This document shows, piece after piece, positions 10,802 through 55,122 of a stretch of 64,000 bases of DNA. Origin of the DNA: Escherichia phage vB_EcoM-101112UKE3-1; the sequence record MZ234013.1; one strand, written 5' to 3'. Position numbers and translations under genes: made by a program. The notes under the pieces were generated by a model. It saw nothing but the letters and a program-made list of their open reading frames with translations. It did not search any database and was not told where the DNA came from. The first letter of the stretch is position 1. The number at the start of each line of letters is the position of its first letter.

Positions 10802-12367
10802 TTAGATACCTTTAACATATACACGGCGGAAGTAAGCATTTTTACCAAGGCTATTCAGAATAGAAGGCATACCGCTCTGGATGCGAGAAGCCGGAGCCTG
10901 AGCAGCGGATTCTGCAAATGGGTTGATACCGATACCGTAACGAGTTTTGAATCCCATTACCGGTTGGAAGTTCTTCGGATCGGAACCACGCAGCGGAGTC
11001 AGAGCTACATATGGAGCGTAGTAAATACCAGCATCCATTTCGTTCGGACCTTTATAACCTACAGTGAAATAATCCTGTTTAGCATACTGGTCGATATATA
11101 CACGGTATTTACCACCCAGAACACCAGCAAATACTGACTTGGTAGTATCAGTGTTAAAGCCGGTAGCCAGACCCTGTGCAGCATAAGAAATGCCGGTATC
11201 AACTGAAGCCAGAACGTTAACTACGTTACGGGAAGCGATAATGAAGTTACCTTCGCCGCGACCAGTCTGACGAGCAATTTCAACTGCTTCTTTGTCAATC
11301 TGGAACAACAGAGCTTTAAAGGATTCACCTGCCCAGCGAGCACCACGAATATCGATTGGGTCCTGGAAGTCAAATACACCAGCTTTAGAACCCGGAGTCA
11401 GGGTCATACCAGATTTACCAACCTGAGCGGAGTAGTTAATCCAATCAACAACTTCGCGGTTGATTTCCAGCATAATTTCTGTAGCCAGAATACCAGACAG
11501 TTCAGCATCAGCATCCATACCATGAACAGCGCGGAGGTCTTGTGCTAATTCAATAGAGTAAGCAGCTTTCAGCTGACGAGATTTAGCTTCGATAACTTGT
11601 TTATCGATACGGAAGCCCATTTCATTCCATGGGTTATCGGTAGAACCGTTGAAACCTTCCTGAAGTTCAGCGATAGAAGTAGCCATACCTTCAGCGATTT
11701 CTACCAGTACACCAGCTTCCATTTGTTTCTTAATTTCAGCATCTAATTTGTCTGCGTCAGATGCGCCTGAATCAATTTGTTTAGCTGCTGTAGCTTGCAG
11801 ATATACAGTACCAGTTTCCTGGAAGAAGTGAGTATAGATATCACCTACTTTGGTTTGTGTGCTAGCAGCCAGAGCTGGGAATTTCTTAGCAGCACCCTGA
11901 CCAGAGAACATTGCATCTGGACCATACATTGGGTGGAATGCTTCTTTAGCATCAGCAGCGATTGGGTCTTTACCATATACTGCACGCAGTGCGAATACCT
12001 GGCCAGTCGGGCTATTCATTGGCTGAACACCACAAATATCGAAAGCAATCAGGTTAGGAATAGCACGACGTACCATACCCATAACAGCTGGGCCAATCTG
12101 AGTTACTGCTCCAGAAGTCTGACCTGCAGCGATGTTGGTAGCATTGTAACCGTGGTCACCACCGATTTCAGCTTCTGTTAAGAAAGAACCGAATGCCTGA
12201 GCAATTTTTTCGTCTTTATATTCCGGAGCTGTCTGGAAATCTTTTTCCTGGTTTTCAAAGATTTTAGCGATAATCGCTTGTTTGCTATTAGCAATTTCCG
12301 GTAAACCTTCACCTTCCAGTAATGGCTTCCATTTGTTCAAAAGTTCAGCTTTAGTTTTGATAGTCAT
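10802..12367 (-). CDS. 23: major capsid protein gp23
   Basis: 521 aa; N-terminus MTIKTKAELLNKWKPLLEGEG matches T4 gp23. Confidence 0.95.
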   Translation of the reverse strand: MTIKTKAELLNKWKPLLEGEGLPEIANSKQAIIAKIFENQEKDFQTAPEYKDEKIAQAFGSFLTEAEIGGDHGYNATNIAAGQTSGAVTQIGPAVMGMVRRAIPNLIAFDICGVQPMNSPTGQVFALRAVYGKDPIAADAKEAFHPMYGPDAMFSGQGAAKKFPALAASTQTKVGDIYTHFFQETGTVYLQATAAKQIDSGASDADKLDAEIKKQMEAGVLVEIAEGMATSIAELQEGFNGSTDNPWNEMGFRIDKQVIEAKSRQLKAAYSIELAQDLRAVHGMDADAELSGILATEIMLEINREVVDWINYSAQVGKSGMTLTPGSKAGVFDFQDPIDIRGARWAGESFKALLFQIDKEAVEIARQTGRGEGNFIIASRNVVNVLASVDTGISYAAQGLATGFNTDTTKSVFAGVLGGKYRVYIDQYAKQDYFTVGYKGPNEMDAGIYYAPYVALTPLRGSDPKNFQPVMGFKTRYGIGINPFAESAAQAPASRIQSGMPSILNSLGKNAYFRRVYVKGI

Positions 12368-26620: not shown

Positions 26621-28177
26621 TTAGTAATGAATTTTAATAATATAGTTTAATGATATATTCCATGGTCTAGTTTCATAACCAATTAACCCTTCGCGATTTA
26701 ACGTGCCGAACGAATCACGAGCCCCACCCATTTCAAATCCGTCGTTAGTAAAGAACAAATGGTTGTCCCAGTCGGCGCTTCTACCATTGCCCAAATATCC
26801 ACTGCCATTAGATGCGCCAAACGGTGCATAACCTCTGTTATTTCCATTTTCCCCCCAGGCGCCAGCATGTTTATGGTATGATATTTGTTGTGCTTGAACA
26901 CCGCCAACATGCATTCCATCGCATCCTACACCAAGTCTATCCTTCCCATAACCATCTTGTCCTCGTTGATTTAAAATATGACCACCGGTGCCCGCTCCTC
27001 TGACGAAAAGACCTCGCATATCAGGAATCCCTGGATTATTCCAATCCCCACCAAATCTTGTTCCAACCGTGTTTCTATAATCAGGATATTGGTCTCCTGA
27101 CACAGTTCCACCATGACACATAATCCAACCTGGAGGTGCTGAATCACCCGCAAACATCATAATAGTTCCAACCGGAACTCGTTCGGACGCATATCTTTCA
27201 GTGGCAACAGGTTGATCGCCATTTTTCCACATTCCACCGCGTGACCAAATTCCATTTGCTGTAAGATGGTCTAAATTTAAAGAACCATTAATAGTTTGTC
27301 CACCACGAGTATTAATTACATCTGCGTTCCAGGCTAATGCCCCAGAGCTATCACCTTCAGGAGCAATACCAGCTTGCGTCGTTAATTTTACTACCCCACG
27401 CATAGAACCGGTAGCTCCTCGACCATTTAGTGTTTCACCTGTTACTGCAACATCCCCCAAATTATTATTAATTTCTGCTTGTGTTCCTAGACGTATAACA
27501 CCCTTATATTCTTGTGTTGCAACAGAATTCATAAAGGTATACGGGGAAATTGCATATCCTTCGCGGAGAGTTCCTTGACGAGTTTGTGCAACAGTAGATA
27601 ATTGAACTACTCCTCTCACAGATTCTGTTGCAGTGTCTTCTGAAGGAGCTATTTGTGAAATTAATTTTATTGCAAGTTTTTGGGTTTTCAGCGGAGTCAT
27701 CGCCGTAGTATCATCAACTCCAGCCAAAGCTGCAGGTGTAGATGATATTTTAATAACCCCGTTTGATGACTCAGACGAATATCTATTTTTGAACACATCG
27801 TCAGTGTGGTATTTCAGTTTTTGTGGTGTTATTGATGAATTATTATCTGAGCCTTTTAATGTTTCTTCATTTGTTGAATAACGCGTTAAACCATATTTAG
27901 TTTCAGTAGCATTTGGATACAATAATCTTGTTGCTAATGTAGCTGGTGTAACGATTTTAGAATTATTAGTTCCATCTAAAACCTCTTGCTCTGACGCAAT
28001 CATTGCTATTCCTTTAACTTCCATAGTTGCATCAGGAATACCATTTACGCCGATATTACTTATTTTTGATAATGCAGACTGCACTGTCGTAACAGTGTCA
28101 GGAAAATTCGATCCAACTGGATCGAATTTAACATATTTTGATTCATTTGATACGTGCTGATATGTATTATTACTCAT
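26621..28177 (-). CDS. 12: short tail fiber protein gp12
   Basis: 518 aa; T4 gp12 is about 527 aa; synteny. Confidence 0.85.
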
Positions 28178-46526: not shown

Positions 46527-46599
46527 TGGGAATTAGCCAAGTTGGTAAGGCACTGGATTTTGATTCCAGGATGCAAAGGTTCGAGTCCTTTATTCCCAG
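46527..46599 (+). tRNA. tRNA-Gln (UUG)
   Basis: Cloverleaf by eye: acceptor tgggaat/attccca, anticodon loop ttTTGat, T-arm ggttcgagtcc. Confidence 0.85.
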
Positions 46600-46600
46600 C

Positions 46601-46687
46601 GCGAGAATGGCCAAATTGGTAAAGGCACAGCACTTAAAATGCTGCGGAATGATTTCCTTGTGGGTTCGAGTCCCACTTCTCGCACCA
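46601..46687 (+). tRNA. tRNA-Leu (UAA), class II, encoded CCA
   Basis: Acceptor gcgagaa/ttctcgc, anticodon loop ctTAAaa, long variable arm, gggttcgagtccc T-arm. Confidence 0.85.
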
Positions 46688-46692
46688 AATTT

Positions 46693-46766
<74 letters not shown>

Positions 46767-46776
46767 ATTTAATTTA

Positions 46777-46850
46777 CTCCGTGTAGCTCAGTTTGGTAGA
46801 GCGTCTGCTTTGGGAGCAGAATGTCGTAGGTTCAAATCCTGCCACGGAGA
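46777..46850 (+). tRNA. tRNA-Pro (UGG)
   Basis: Acceptor ctccgtg/cacggag, anticodon loop ttTGGga, T-arm ggttcaaatcc. Confidence 0.85.
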
Positions 46851-46852
46851 CT

Positions 46853-46939
46853 GGAGGCGTGGCAGAGTGGTTTAATGCACCGGTCTTGAAAACCGGCAGT
46901 CGCTCCGGCGACTCATAGGTTCAAATCCTATCGCCTCCG
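46853..46939 (+). tRNA. tRNA-Ser (UGA), class II
   Basis: Acceptor ggaggcg/cgcctcc, anticodon loop ctTGAaa, long variable arm. Confidence 0.85.
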
Positions 46940-46941
46940 TT

Positions 46942-47017
46942 GCTGATTTAGCTCAGTAGGTAGAGCAACTCACTTGTAATGAGAAGGTCGGCGGTTCGAT
47001 TCCGTCAATCAGCACCA
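46942..47017 (+). tRNA. tRNA-Thr (UGU)
   Basis: Acceptor gctgatt/aatcagc, anticodon loop ctTGTaa, ggttcgattcc T-arm, CCA. Confidence 0.85.
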
Positions 47018-47018
47018 A

Positions 47019-47095
47019 GGCCCTGTAGCTCAATGGTTAGCAGCAGTCCCCTCATAAGGGAAAGGTTACCAGTTCAAATCTGGTCTGGGTCACCA
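47019..47095 (+). tRNA. tRNA-Ile (anticodon CAU, lysidine type; a naive predictor would call Met)
   Basis: Anticodon loop ctCATaa, T-arm agttcaaatct, CCA; T4 carries a CAU-anticodon tRNA-Ile at this position. Confidence 0.8.
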
Positions 47096-47104
47096 AATTA
47101 ATTA

Positions 47105-47191
47105 GGGGAGTTATCCCGTAGAGGTAGCGGTGTGGACTGTAAATCCATTGTCATTGCGACTCGGGTGGTTCGACTCCATCACTCCCCACCA
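47105..47191 (+). tRNA. candidate tRNA-Tyr (GUA), class II with long variable arm
   Basis: Perfect 7-bp acceptor ggggagt/actcccc, anticodon loop ctGTAaa, 15-nt variable arm, T-arm ggtgg-ttcgact-ccatc, CCA; resembles E. coli tRNA-Tyr. Confidence 0.65.
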
Positions 47192-47908: not shown

Positions 47909-47983
47909 GTCCCGCTGGTGTAATGGATAGCATACGATCCTTCTAAGTTTGCGGTCCTGGTTCGATCCCAGGGCGGGATACCA
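47909..47983 (+). tRNA. tRNA-Arg (UCU)
   Basis: Acceptor gtcccgc/gcgggat, anticodon loop ctTCTaa, T-arm cctggttcgatcccagg, CCA. Confidence 0.85.
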
Positions 47984-47989
47984 AATGAG

Positions 47990-48296
47990 AAACCGGGTCG
48001 CTACCGGTAAGTCGTCGGACTGATGTTCCCTGTTTAAGGACTGGCATTAATAAATCTTTATGTTTTGTTAATGCCCCCTTATATCACAGCAGAAACGGCG
48101 CACCGAATTATCGATTCGAGGAAATATCTTTGCCATAAGCCGAGTAGCGTTTTTGACGGAACGTTCGGATATGGTCGAGATATGGCCTTTTAAAAATATT
48201 GAGTAGCGTCAACTGCTTAATAACCGGGTTCGAATCCCGGCGTTTCGTACAAACACTTGCCTTAGCAGGTGGAACCCCGACAAGGTTGCCGCAAGG
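47990..48296 (+). ncRNA. candidate small stable RNAs downstream of tRNA-Arg (T4 species 1 / species 2 RNA-like)
   Basis: About 300 nt with no ORF, GC-rich helices and a tRNA-like T-arm (ccgggttcgaatcccgg); T4 has rnaC/rnaD next to tRNA-Arg. Boundaries not determined. Confidence 0.3.
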
Positions 48297-48330
48297 CTTA
48301 GCCCCGACCGAAAGGTTGGGGCTTTTTAGT
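48297..48330 (+). terminator. rho-independent terminator (copy 1 of a duplicated terminator)
   Basis: cttagccccgaccgaaaggttggggcttttt: 8-bp stem, GAAA loop, T-tract; followed by TATAAATA at 48330..48337. Confidence 0.65.
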
Positions 48331-48373
48331 ATAAATAAGTATATTAAAACCCCGAATTAAAACAGGAAATAAG

Positions 48374-52511: not shown

Positions 52512-53042
<531 letters not shown>

Positions 53043-53046
53043 AGTT

Positions 53047-53077
53047 GTTTACTTTCTCCTAGAATTGTGATAGTATA
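53047..53077 (+). promoter_or_regulatory. T4 early-type promoter upstream of denV
   Basis: gtttac, spacer, tgtgatagtat. Confidence 0.5.
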
Positions 53078-53101
53078 TTCACAGTTACTTGGAGGGATAA
53101 A

Positions 53102-53518
53102 ATGACTCGTATTAATTTGACTTTAGTATCTGAACTTGCTGATCAACATTTAATCGCAGAATACCGTGAATTGCCGCGTGTTTTTGGTATAGTTCGTAAG
53201 CATGTGGCAAACGGTAAGCGCGTTAAAGATTTTAAAATATCTTCTAAATTTATTTTAGGTTCTGGTCATGTTACTTTCTTTTACGATAAGTTAGAATTTT
53301 TGCGAAAGCGTCAATCGGACATTATAACGGAATGCTTAAAACGCGGGTTCAGTATAAAAGATACTGAAGTTCCTGACATCAGCGATATTCCAGTAGAATG
53401 GAAAAATGATTATAATCCATGTAAATCAGCTATTAAGTTGAGTCAACAACGACTCGATGAAAAAATTTTAATGAAGCCACACTGGTATAAGTATTACGGC
53501 AAAAATATTTACATTTAA
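53102..53518 (+). CDS. denV: endonuclease V (pyrimidine dimer DNA glycosylase, DenV)
   Basis: 138 aa; [29 protein letters not shown] matches T4 endonuclease V. Confidence 0.9.
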
Positions 53519-54206: not shown

Positions 54207-54532
54207 TGACAGACACTCAGCTTTTCGAATATCTTTATTTTTCGCCAAAAACTATTAAAAATAAATTGGTGAATCATTTTGAAATTTTGGCAAAAAATAA
54301 CATTTTGAGCGAATTTTATCCCAAGCAATACAAATTACAAAAAGGCGTATTCAAAGGATGCAGAGTTTTGTGCACGGCTCCTAATGCACGGCTAATGAAT
54401 AAAATTCCATATTTTACCATGGAATTTATTGATGGGCCTTTTAAAGGACTAATCACACAGAGTTTAATGGCATATGATTCTGAGCCATTTTTAATTAAAG
54501 AACAATCTTGGATAAATTTATTTTCTAATTGA
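54203..54532 (+). CDS. hypothetical protein
   Basis: ATGATG start overlapping the upstream stop; about 110 aa. Confidence 0.45.
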   Translation: MMTDTQLFEYLYFSPKTIKNKLVNHFEILAKNNILSEFYPKQYKLQKGVFKGCRVLCTAPNARLMNKIPYFTMEFIDGPFKGLITQSLMAYDSEPFLIKEQSWINLFSN

Positions 54533-54538
54533 GGTTAT

Positions 54539-54901
54539 ATGAAAGCATATCAAATTCTTGAAGGCACACATAAAGGTACTATTTATTTTGAAGATGGTAT
54601 TCAAGCACGAATTATTGTCTCTAAAACCTTTAAAGAGGACTCTTTTGTAGACCCAGAAATTTTCTATGGTTTGCATGCCCGTGAAATTGAAATTGAGCAA
54701 CAGCCTACAGTTAAAATTGAAGGTGGTCAACACCTGAACGTTAACGTTCTGCGTCGTGAAACTCTGGAAGATGCAGTTAAGCATCCGGAAAAATATCCGC
54801 AGCTGACCATCCGTGTATCCGGTTATGCAGTTCGCTTTAACTCTCTGACTCCGGAACAGCAGCGCGACGTTATCGCTCGTACCTTCACCGAGAGTTTGTA
54901 A
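54539..54901 (+). CDS. autonomous glycyl radical cofactor (GrcA/YfiD-like)
   Basis: C-terminal 60 aa carry the glycyl-radical signature [25 protein letters not shown]; T4 is reported to encode such a YfiD homolog. Confidence 0.8.
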
Positions 54902-55122
54902 TGGCAAAGATAATTATTGAAGGTTCTGAAGATGTGCTAAATGCTTTCGCCGAGTGGTTTAGTAATTCAGGCGAACAGCAATTTAATGAAGCGTGGAATA
55001 TGGGTGATATTAGTGGAATTTATCCTACGACAGAAATTTCTGTTCAGGGATATGGCATTCATGAACCTATTCGTTTAGTTGAATACGATTTATGTACTGG
55101 TGAGGAAGTCAAATATGATTGA
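54901..55122 (+). CDS. hypothetical protein
   Basis: 73 aa, TAATG overlap with upstream stop. Confidence 0.4.
   Translation: MAKIIIEGSEDVLNAFAEWFSNSGEQQFNEAWNMGDISGIYPTTEISVQGYGIHEPIRLVEYDLCTGEEVKYD

Follow-up and report, generated by a model that had tools for sequence, protein, structure and literature searches.

Introduction

How can a gene of a lytic T-even phage come to contain, in the middle of an otherwise phage-type reading frame, a run of nucleotides identical to a chromosomal gene of its host? Because T-even phages break down the DNA of their host and have modified cytosine in their own, recombination from host to phage should be rare. The question is nonetheless raised by one open reading frame (ORF) of Escherichia phage vB_EcoM-101112UKE3-1, situated in a stretch of 64,000 nucleotides from sequence record MZ234013.1 (the whole of this stretch is hereafter called the window). 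An earlier note, made from the letters of the window, had described this ORF as a chimeric, GrcA-like gene with a recently host-derived 3' end. The analysis presented here addresses the identity of the gene, the extent and donor of its host-like segment, and the number of events by which that segment was acquired.

The gene and its locus

On its sequence, the ORF is the ortholog of T4 vs.6 (Y06I) and encodes a predicted GrcA-like autonomous glycyl-radical cofactor. The gene class is already known, and the T4 homolog which the earlier note mentioned from the literature is this same Vs.6/Y06I. The features of the locus are as follows.

52548..53042: lysozyme gene e, just upstream of the vs.6 block
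53102..53518: denV, just upstream of the vs.6 block
54531..54534, plus strand: GAGG, a putative Shine-Dalgarno-like element read from the sequence, 4 nt 5' of the vs.6 ATG
54539..54901, plus strand: vs.6, complete ORF of 120 aa (from the ORF list)

The window protein is identical to T4 Vs.6 at 118 of 120 positions, the exceptions being Q54 (P in T4) and R73 (H in T4). The two genes have in common their locus position, their 5' junction and the E. coli-identical patch described below; apart from the two amino acids, a few synonymous changes near the 3' end distinguish them, and their 5' halves (heads) differ at 2 of 177 nt. At the nucleotide level, vs.6 of the window is 100% identical to that of phages Pinarejo and REP2 and 99.2% identical to that of T2, the source phage being a T2/T4-like Tequatrovirus. 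The gene order in the window (e, denV, vs.8-like, vs.7-like, vs.6, vs.5-like) agrees with the annotation of T4 and RB69. Within 52548-53518, denV directly follows the lysozyme gene e, where T4 has ipIII and ipII in between; in phage SP18, e adjoins denV as it does in the window.

The TGA stop codon of the upstream vs.7-like ORF (54530-54532) overlaps the GAGG element, and a scan for promoters and terminators around vs.6 returned nothing beyond the shuffled expectation. The gene is missing from Dhakavirus JS98 and Gaprivervirus SP18, where vs.7 is directly followed by the vs.5-like ORF; vs.6 is therefore dispensable and accessory within the Tevenvirinae. The corresponding regions are the following.

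Phage JS98, locus L100, 1098-1605: vs.7/vs.5-like region without vs.6
Phage SP18, locus L101, 539-1046: vs.7/vs.5-like region without vs.6

Protein family and predicted function

Residues 60-101 of the window protein match the Pfam model Gly_radical (PF01228) with 67 bits (cutoff 22.2), while the best-scoring model is the NCBIfam GrcA equivalog TIGR04365 (154.9 bits, E = 1.2e-45, residues 20-120). The curated cutoff of the latter (170 bits) is not reached because the N-terminal half of the protein has diverged. The best PDB match, obtained with phmmer, is 6OWR, the NMR structure of E. coli YfiD/GrcA, whose domain is near-identical (E = 9e-42, residues 22-120), and residues 58-120 align with residues 697-759 at the C-terminus of PflB (1H16, 2PFL; E = 5e-26). 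The C-terminal 60 residues had been described in the earlier note as matching E. coli GrcA essentially residue for residue, and so they do: E61..L120 is identical to E68..L127 of GrcA, RVSGYAVRF included. The RVSGYAV motif occupies residues 92-98 and contains the predicted radical site, whose assignment in GrcA and PflB is taken from the literature (PMC8683613).

54821..54823, plus strand: GGT codon of Gly95 in RVSGYAV, corresponding to Gly102 of GrcA and Gly734 of PflB; predicted glycyl-radical site

The window protein is a stand-alone product of 120 aa, whose ORF has a start codon, a stop codon and a Shine-Dalgarno-like element of its own. The protein resembles in this E. coli GrcA, likewise a stand-alone protein of ~14 kDa with RVSGYAV, and the two are identical over the C-terminal 60 residues as well as over 169 nt of the underlying DNA. 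They differ in the N-terminal half, which in the window protein is 7 residues shorter and only ~35% identical over 40 aa, and in genetic context: E. coli grcA lies in the order ung-grcA-eamB, whereas the window gene occupies a phage locus and is translationally coupled to the next gene. PflB, in contrast to both, is an enzyme of 759 aa, and its C-terminal glycyl-radical domain is the part that is replaced by the spare-part protein.

Only two spare-part proteins have been validated biochemically, T4 Y06I and E. coli YfiD, which were activated by PFL activase and then restored the activity of oxygen-cleaved PflB (Wagner et al., 2001, as related in PMC8683613). By analogy with Y06I, from which it is 2 of 120 residues apart, the window protein would be expected to perform the same function. 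Oxygen would cleave host PflB at its radical glycine, the host activase PflA would activate the small protein with its equivalent glycyl-radical domain, and the activated spare-part protein would bind the cleaved PflB and restore its activity. With host gene expression shut off, as it is by T4, a phage copy would sustain anaerobic or microaerobic energy metabolism during infection.

A host-identical patch inside the gene

The gene can be divided into the following segments.

54539..54716, plus strand: phage-type 5' half (M1..I60), an AT-rich and strongly diverged homolog of the GrcA N-terminus
54717..54885, plus strand: host-derived patch, probably a conversion tract, whose 169 nt match E. coli grcA without exception; it encodes E61..F116
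54892..54901, plus strand: phage-type 3' end, consisting of the third base of GAG followed by AGT TTG TAA

The 185 nt from 54717 to 54901 are 97.3% identical to grcA in each of the 5,426 complete genomes of E. coli that were searched; the same search gave no nucleotide match to the 5' half of vs.6. A maximum chi-square breakpoint test (codon-aware alignment to E. coli grcA, 5,000 permutations) gave a value of 105.5, whereas no permutation exceeded 22.1; the identity was 48% to the left of the breakpoint and 97.3% to its right. The 3' half is thus closer to host grcA at the nucleotide level (~97%) than the 5' half (~48%), as the idea of a host-derived end implied. No other segment of the 64-kb window matches E. 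coli chromosomes at the level of identity that megablast detects. The patch may reach as far as 54891, in which case 54886 and 54889 would be synonymous differences private to this lineage.

The G+C content of the 3' half (tail) is 0.492; the head has 0.337 and the window as a whole 0.356. Among all 185-nt segments of the window, 0.75% have a G+C content at least as high as the tail, and these fall into 7 regions, one of which is a tRNA cluster; the compositional shift that had been noticed by eye therefore places the tail in the top 0.75% of the background. GC3 likewise differs between tail and head (0.46 vs 0.20; Fisher p = 0.004). The codons named earlier as preferred by E. coli were found in part: CTG (5 of 6 Leu codons), CGT (with CGC, 6 of 6 Arg codons) and CCG (3 of 3 Pro codons) are indeed used in the tail, but GCG is not, the Ala codons being GCA, GCA and GCT. 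Further 185-nt segments with a G+C content equal to or above that of the patch are located at 10812-12182, 26678-27035 and 48125-48331; in E. coli genomes, megablast gave no match to any of them.

Limits of the patch

At the 5' border, the window gene reads AAA ATT, as does Jiaodavirus, and the hosts read CGC GTT; the A at 54716 is common to distant phage homologs and differs from the hosts. In some Mosigviruses, BLAST matches began ~45 nt further upstream, which suggested different 5' breakpoints. This extension was rejected on base-by-base alignment, where it proved to be weak chance similarity preceding the usual junction.

At the 3' border, all 22 of the 22 sampled hosts end in GAA AGC CTG TAA, whereas Mosigvirus and Slopekvirus genes end in GAG AGT CTA TAA and those of Jiaodavirus have GAG GCA CTA. 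The host-derived part of the 3' end therefore stops short of the TAA, and the three codons with which the window gene finishes are phage-type. The stop codon is overlapped by the ATG of the next gene (54901-54903) as TAATG, and the GAG at 54890-54892, 8 nt upstream of that start, is likely its Shine-Dalgarno element, with a presumed regulatory role; in the annotation of phage Matisse, the same GAG is marked as the ribosome-binding site of the next gene. Retention of this ribosome-binding element is a plausible reason for the tract to end where it does. When the E. coli query was extended, no host sequence past the stop codon was found in the phages examined; a match of 7-8 nt past the stop in Mosigviruses was set aside as too short to be meaningful.

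Phage OES_C-2 (vs.6 at locus L102, 329-685) carries the host-type AGC CTG at the 3' end while keeping GAG, and that GAG accounts for the single mismatch to E. coli grcA in the 185 nt of its tail. The host-type end could be due to a longer tract or to two point changes. The head of the same gene has a 6-nt in-frame deletion (REIETQ vs REIEIEQQ).

The sharp junction, the lack of nucleotide similarity upstream of it and the break in composition are all features that would be left by a new chimera, in which an unrelated phage N-terminal domain had been joined to a captured host 3' end by illegitimate recombination. Such an origin is nevertheless very improbable. The head is itself homologous to the N-terminus of E. 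coli GrcA (35% identity over 40 aa, E = 5e-6 in BLASTP), and the model and structure alignments already start at residues 20-22. Moreover, the gene is of phage type rather than host type in its last three codons and around the stop, host sequence is missing after the stop codon, and the same full-length architecture recurs in distant phages whose tails are not host-like. As the N-terminal half is a diverged GrcA N-terminus, the gene is to be regarded as an old phage grcA homolog that was partly overwritten, and not as a new fusion. The host-derived segment of the earlier note is thus retained, provided that its word chimeric is not understood as the joining of unrelated domains.

Donor and direction of transfer

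Over the last 186 nt, the phage genes show 4-7 mismatches to E. coli, 6-9 to cryptic-clade Escherichia and 18-21 to Citrobacter amalonaticus; for comparison, E. coli and Salmonella have 29 differences over this length. A neighbour-joining tree of the tail nucleotides, constructed without bootstrap, places the Tequatrovirus and Mosigvirus sequences beside E. coli inside the Escherichia clade, apart from the tails of Jiaodavirus, Karamvirus and Slopekvirus. The pflB gene was also considered as a donor and was dismissed, its nucleotide identity to the patch being only ~80%.

Near-identity by itself gives no direction, and a transfer of the 3' half from a T-even phage into E. coli grcA would produce the same match. 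However, the composition and codon usage of the patch are host-like and not phage-like. Furthermore, the head and tail of E. coli grcA diverge in parallel from those of its relatives (23 and 14 for Citrobacter, 31 and 29 for Salmonella) and in the order of the species tree, on which account E. coli grcA is considered vertically inherited and hence the donor. An artefact, through assembly chimerism or host contamination, is contradicted by the occurrence of the patch in T4, in RB69 and in 638 phage records that were sequenced independently, the surrounding phage gene being the same each time. Reverse transfer and artefact are consequently given a negligible probability. Of the first 13 changes in the core of the tail that are private to the phages, 9 are GC to AT, as expected for host DNA drifting towards phage composition. 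The data show that the transfer went from host to phage and that it was recent.

Distribution among phages

In 638 phage records, the tail matches E. coli grcA with an identity of 95% or more. The same 5' junction is present in 11 of the 11 Tequatrovirus and Mosigvirus genes that were aligned, T4 and RB69 included, which answers the question posed earlier of whether the break is shared with T4: it is, and with RB69 also. More distant homologs in Jiaodavirus, Karamvirus, Slopekvirus and Krischvirus, in Aeromonas and Vibrio phages and in T5-like phages have the same two-part architecture, and their tails lie 15-30% from any sampled host. In all phage homologs, the tail is better conserved than the head.

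The host set used for the tail comparison comprised 80 loci, K. pneumoniae grcA not being among these. When the tails were searched against all phages, none was found to be >95% identical to sampled Klebsiella or Salmonella grcA; recurrent capture is thus documented only for phages of E. coli. The tails of Klebsiella phages differ from those of all sampled hosts at 24-33 of 186 nt. Codons 76-80 in Klebsiella phages of Jiaodavirus (L004, L105) and Slopekvirus (L086) lie in ETLLDAVEH, as in Klebsiella GrcA, and E. coli phages have ETLEDAVKH, as in E. coli GrcA. The Klebsiella-type residues in these phages could represent old conversions or convergent selection.

In phage vB_Eco_Some (OZ034686; locus L099, 223-664), a 79-bp tandem duplication of gene nt 269-347, within the patch, causes a frameshift. 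It is either a real disruptive event or an assembly error.

Age of the patch

Base-by-base comparison was carried out on 11 Tequatrovirus and Mosigvirus alleles. Between the two genera, 17-20 of 177 nt differ in the head and 23-35% of positions in the next gene, against 0-5 of 174 nt in the core, and Aplg8 (Tequatrovirus) and RPN187 (Mosigvirus) have 0 core differences. The contrast persists at synonymous codons: summed over all pairs between the genera, 165 of 786 differ in the head and 36 of 862 in the core, and for T4 and RB69 the counts are 11 of 53 and 0 of 56, respectively (p = 2e-4). Along the locus, the identity of the window to RB69 is 53-87% in vs.7 and 87-95% across the head; it rises to 95-100% within the patch and falls to 65-77% in vs.5. 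Since the core differs far less between the genera than the head or the next gene, the patch must be younger than the Tequatrovirus-Mosigvirus split. The recent host-derived 3' end of the earlier note is accordingly upheld with refinements, in that the gene is an old homolog, the host-derived segment is an internal patch, and two genera carry it.

Within each genus, head and core show similar divergence, so that the core cannot be under a special constraint at the nucleotide level. This finding bears on a further explanation, namely a single ancient acquisition in the T-even ancestor followed by freezing of the 3' half, synonymous sites included, through purifying selection. The C-terminal 60 aa are almost invariant in hosts and phages and, as stated above, the tail is the better conserved half of every phage homolog, both of which would agree with strong selection on this part of the protein. 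Nevertheless, host orthologs vary freely at synonymous sites (14-33 differences from E. coli in 186 nt), the core changes as fast as the head within each phage genus, and the tails of the other phage genera are 15-30% away from any sampled host. In addition, the tail is nearest to E. coli specifically, before the cryptic Escherichia clade or Citrobacter. The chance that an ancient acquisition explains the patch is accordingly put at a few in a hundred at the very most, lower still than for a new chimera.

Number of acquisition events

A patch younger than the split implies at least two captures from E. coli, or one capture plus passage between the genera. Only one core variant common to both genera was found, a homoplasy at position 42 (EcNP1 and RB69), and neither diagnostic host SNP haplotypes nor clearly different tract ends were detected among the 11 alleles. 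The most divergent Tequatrovirus alleles, those of EcNP1 and IME537, were considered as unconverted relics; they have 6 derived core changes in common, which match distant phage homologs inconsistently, and these are read as ordinary mutations.

A single capture by one phage lineage, followed by phage-to-phage spread between Tequatrovirus and Mosigvirus during co-infection, would fit the 11 alleles in that all share one 5' junction and their 3' limits almost coincide, and T-even phages are known to recombine very actively with each other. The similar divergence of head and core within the genera also means that conversion is not visibly ongoing. On the other hand, the stretch of low divergence between the genera coincides at both ends with the limits of host homology, the identity dropping to 87-90% in the head and to 65-77% right after the stop codon, and a tract passed from phage to phage would have no cause to end precisely there. 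Besides, the identity with E. coli extends in both genera to the very edges of the patch, and no unconverted sites are left over. A single capture is thus regarded as rather unlikely, though it retains an appreciable share of the probability. With a patch younger than the split and limits that coincide with host homology, at least two host-templated conversions are favoured, and probably more than one such event took place.

Proposed origin

It is very probable that vs.6 is a spare-part gene whose 3' half was converted by E. coli grcA after the two genera had split, a history that favours repeated conversion. The starting point would be an old, AT-rich phage grcA homolog, in which the central 169-175 nt of the conserved 3' half (E61 to ~T117) would have been overwritten by E. 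coli grcA. The presumed mechanism is homologous recombination (gene conversion) with host DNA during infection. The tract fills almost the whole of the host-phage homology, starting at the E-G-G codons, where this homology sets in, and ending before the last three codons, and the annealing of single-stranded host fragments would fit this shape.

A more far-reaching version may be put forward tentatively, although it is judged to be wrong somewhat more readily than right. According to it, the radical half of vs.6 would be kept identical to the grcA of the current host by repeated host-templated conversion, with selection for an exact match, since the protein has to be recognised by the host activase and to fit into the cleaved host PflB. 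A lytic phage gene and a chromosomal gene would then evolve in concert, possibly via single-stranded fragments of degraded host DNA, and ETLLDAVEH in Klebsiella phages would be an older trace of the same process.

Significance and relation to known cases

The mosaics of cyanophage psbA are examples of host-phage intragenic recombination in auxiliary metabolic genes. In psbA, as in vs.6, a phage metabolic gene contains a near-identical segment of host composition which is bounded inside the gene. The case of vs.6 differs in that the phage is a strictly lytic coliphage with modified DNA, which destroys the host chromosome, and in that the segment measures ~170 nt, is essentially identical to a single host species and occurs in two phage genera. 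The patch thus provides clean natural evidence that recombination from host to T-even phage occurs and becomes fixed, and offers a simple test system for the rate and pathway by which lytic phages copy host sequences. It further suggests selection for an exact match of the radical domain to the host protein.

No description of the host-identical patch was found in the searchable literature, the T4 genome review of Miller et al. (2003) lying outside this search, and on vs.6 a Pfam match alone is mentioned by Nolan et al. (2006). The patch is therefore apparently an unreported case of gene conversion from a host to a lytic phage in an auxiliary metabolic gene.

The tRNA cluster of the window

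The tRNA cluster at 46527-47191 and 47909-47983 comprises 9 tRNA genes. Its tRNA-Tyr gene (47105-47191) is, besides the grcA patch, the sole megablast match of the window to E. coli genomes: it is 90-94% identical to tRNA-Tyr on plasmids of ~80-115 kb in 255 E. coli genomes, and the matches were never on chromosomes.
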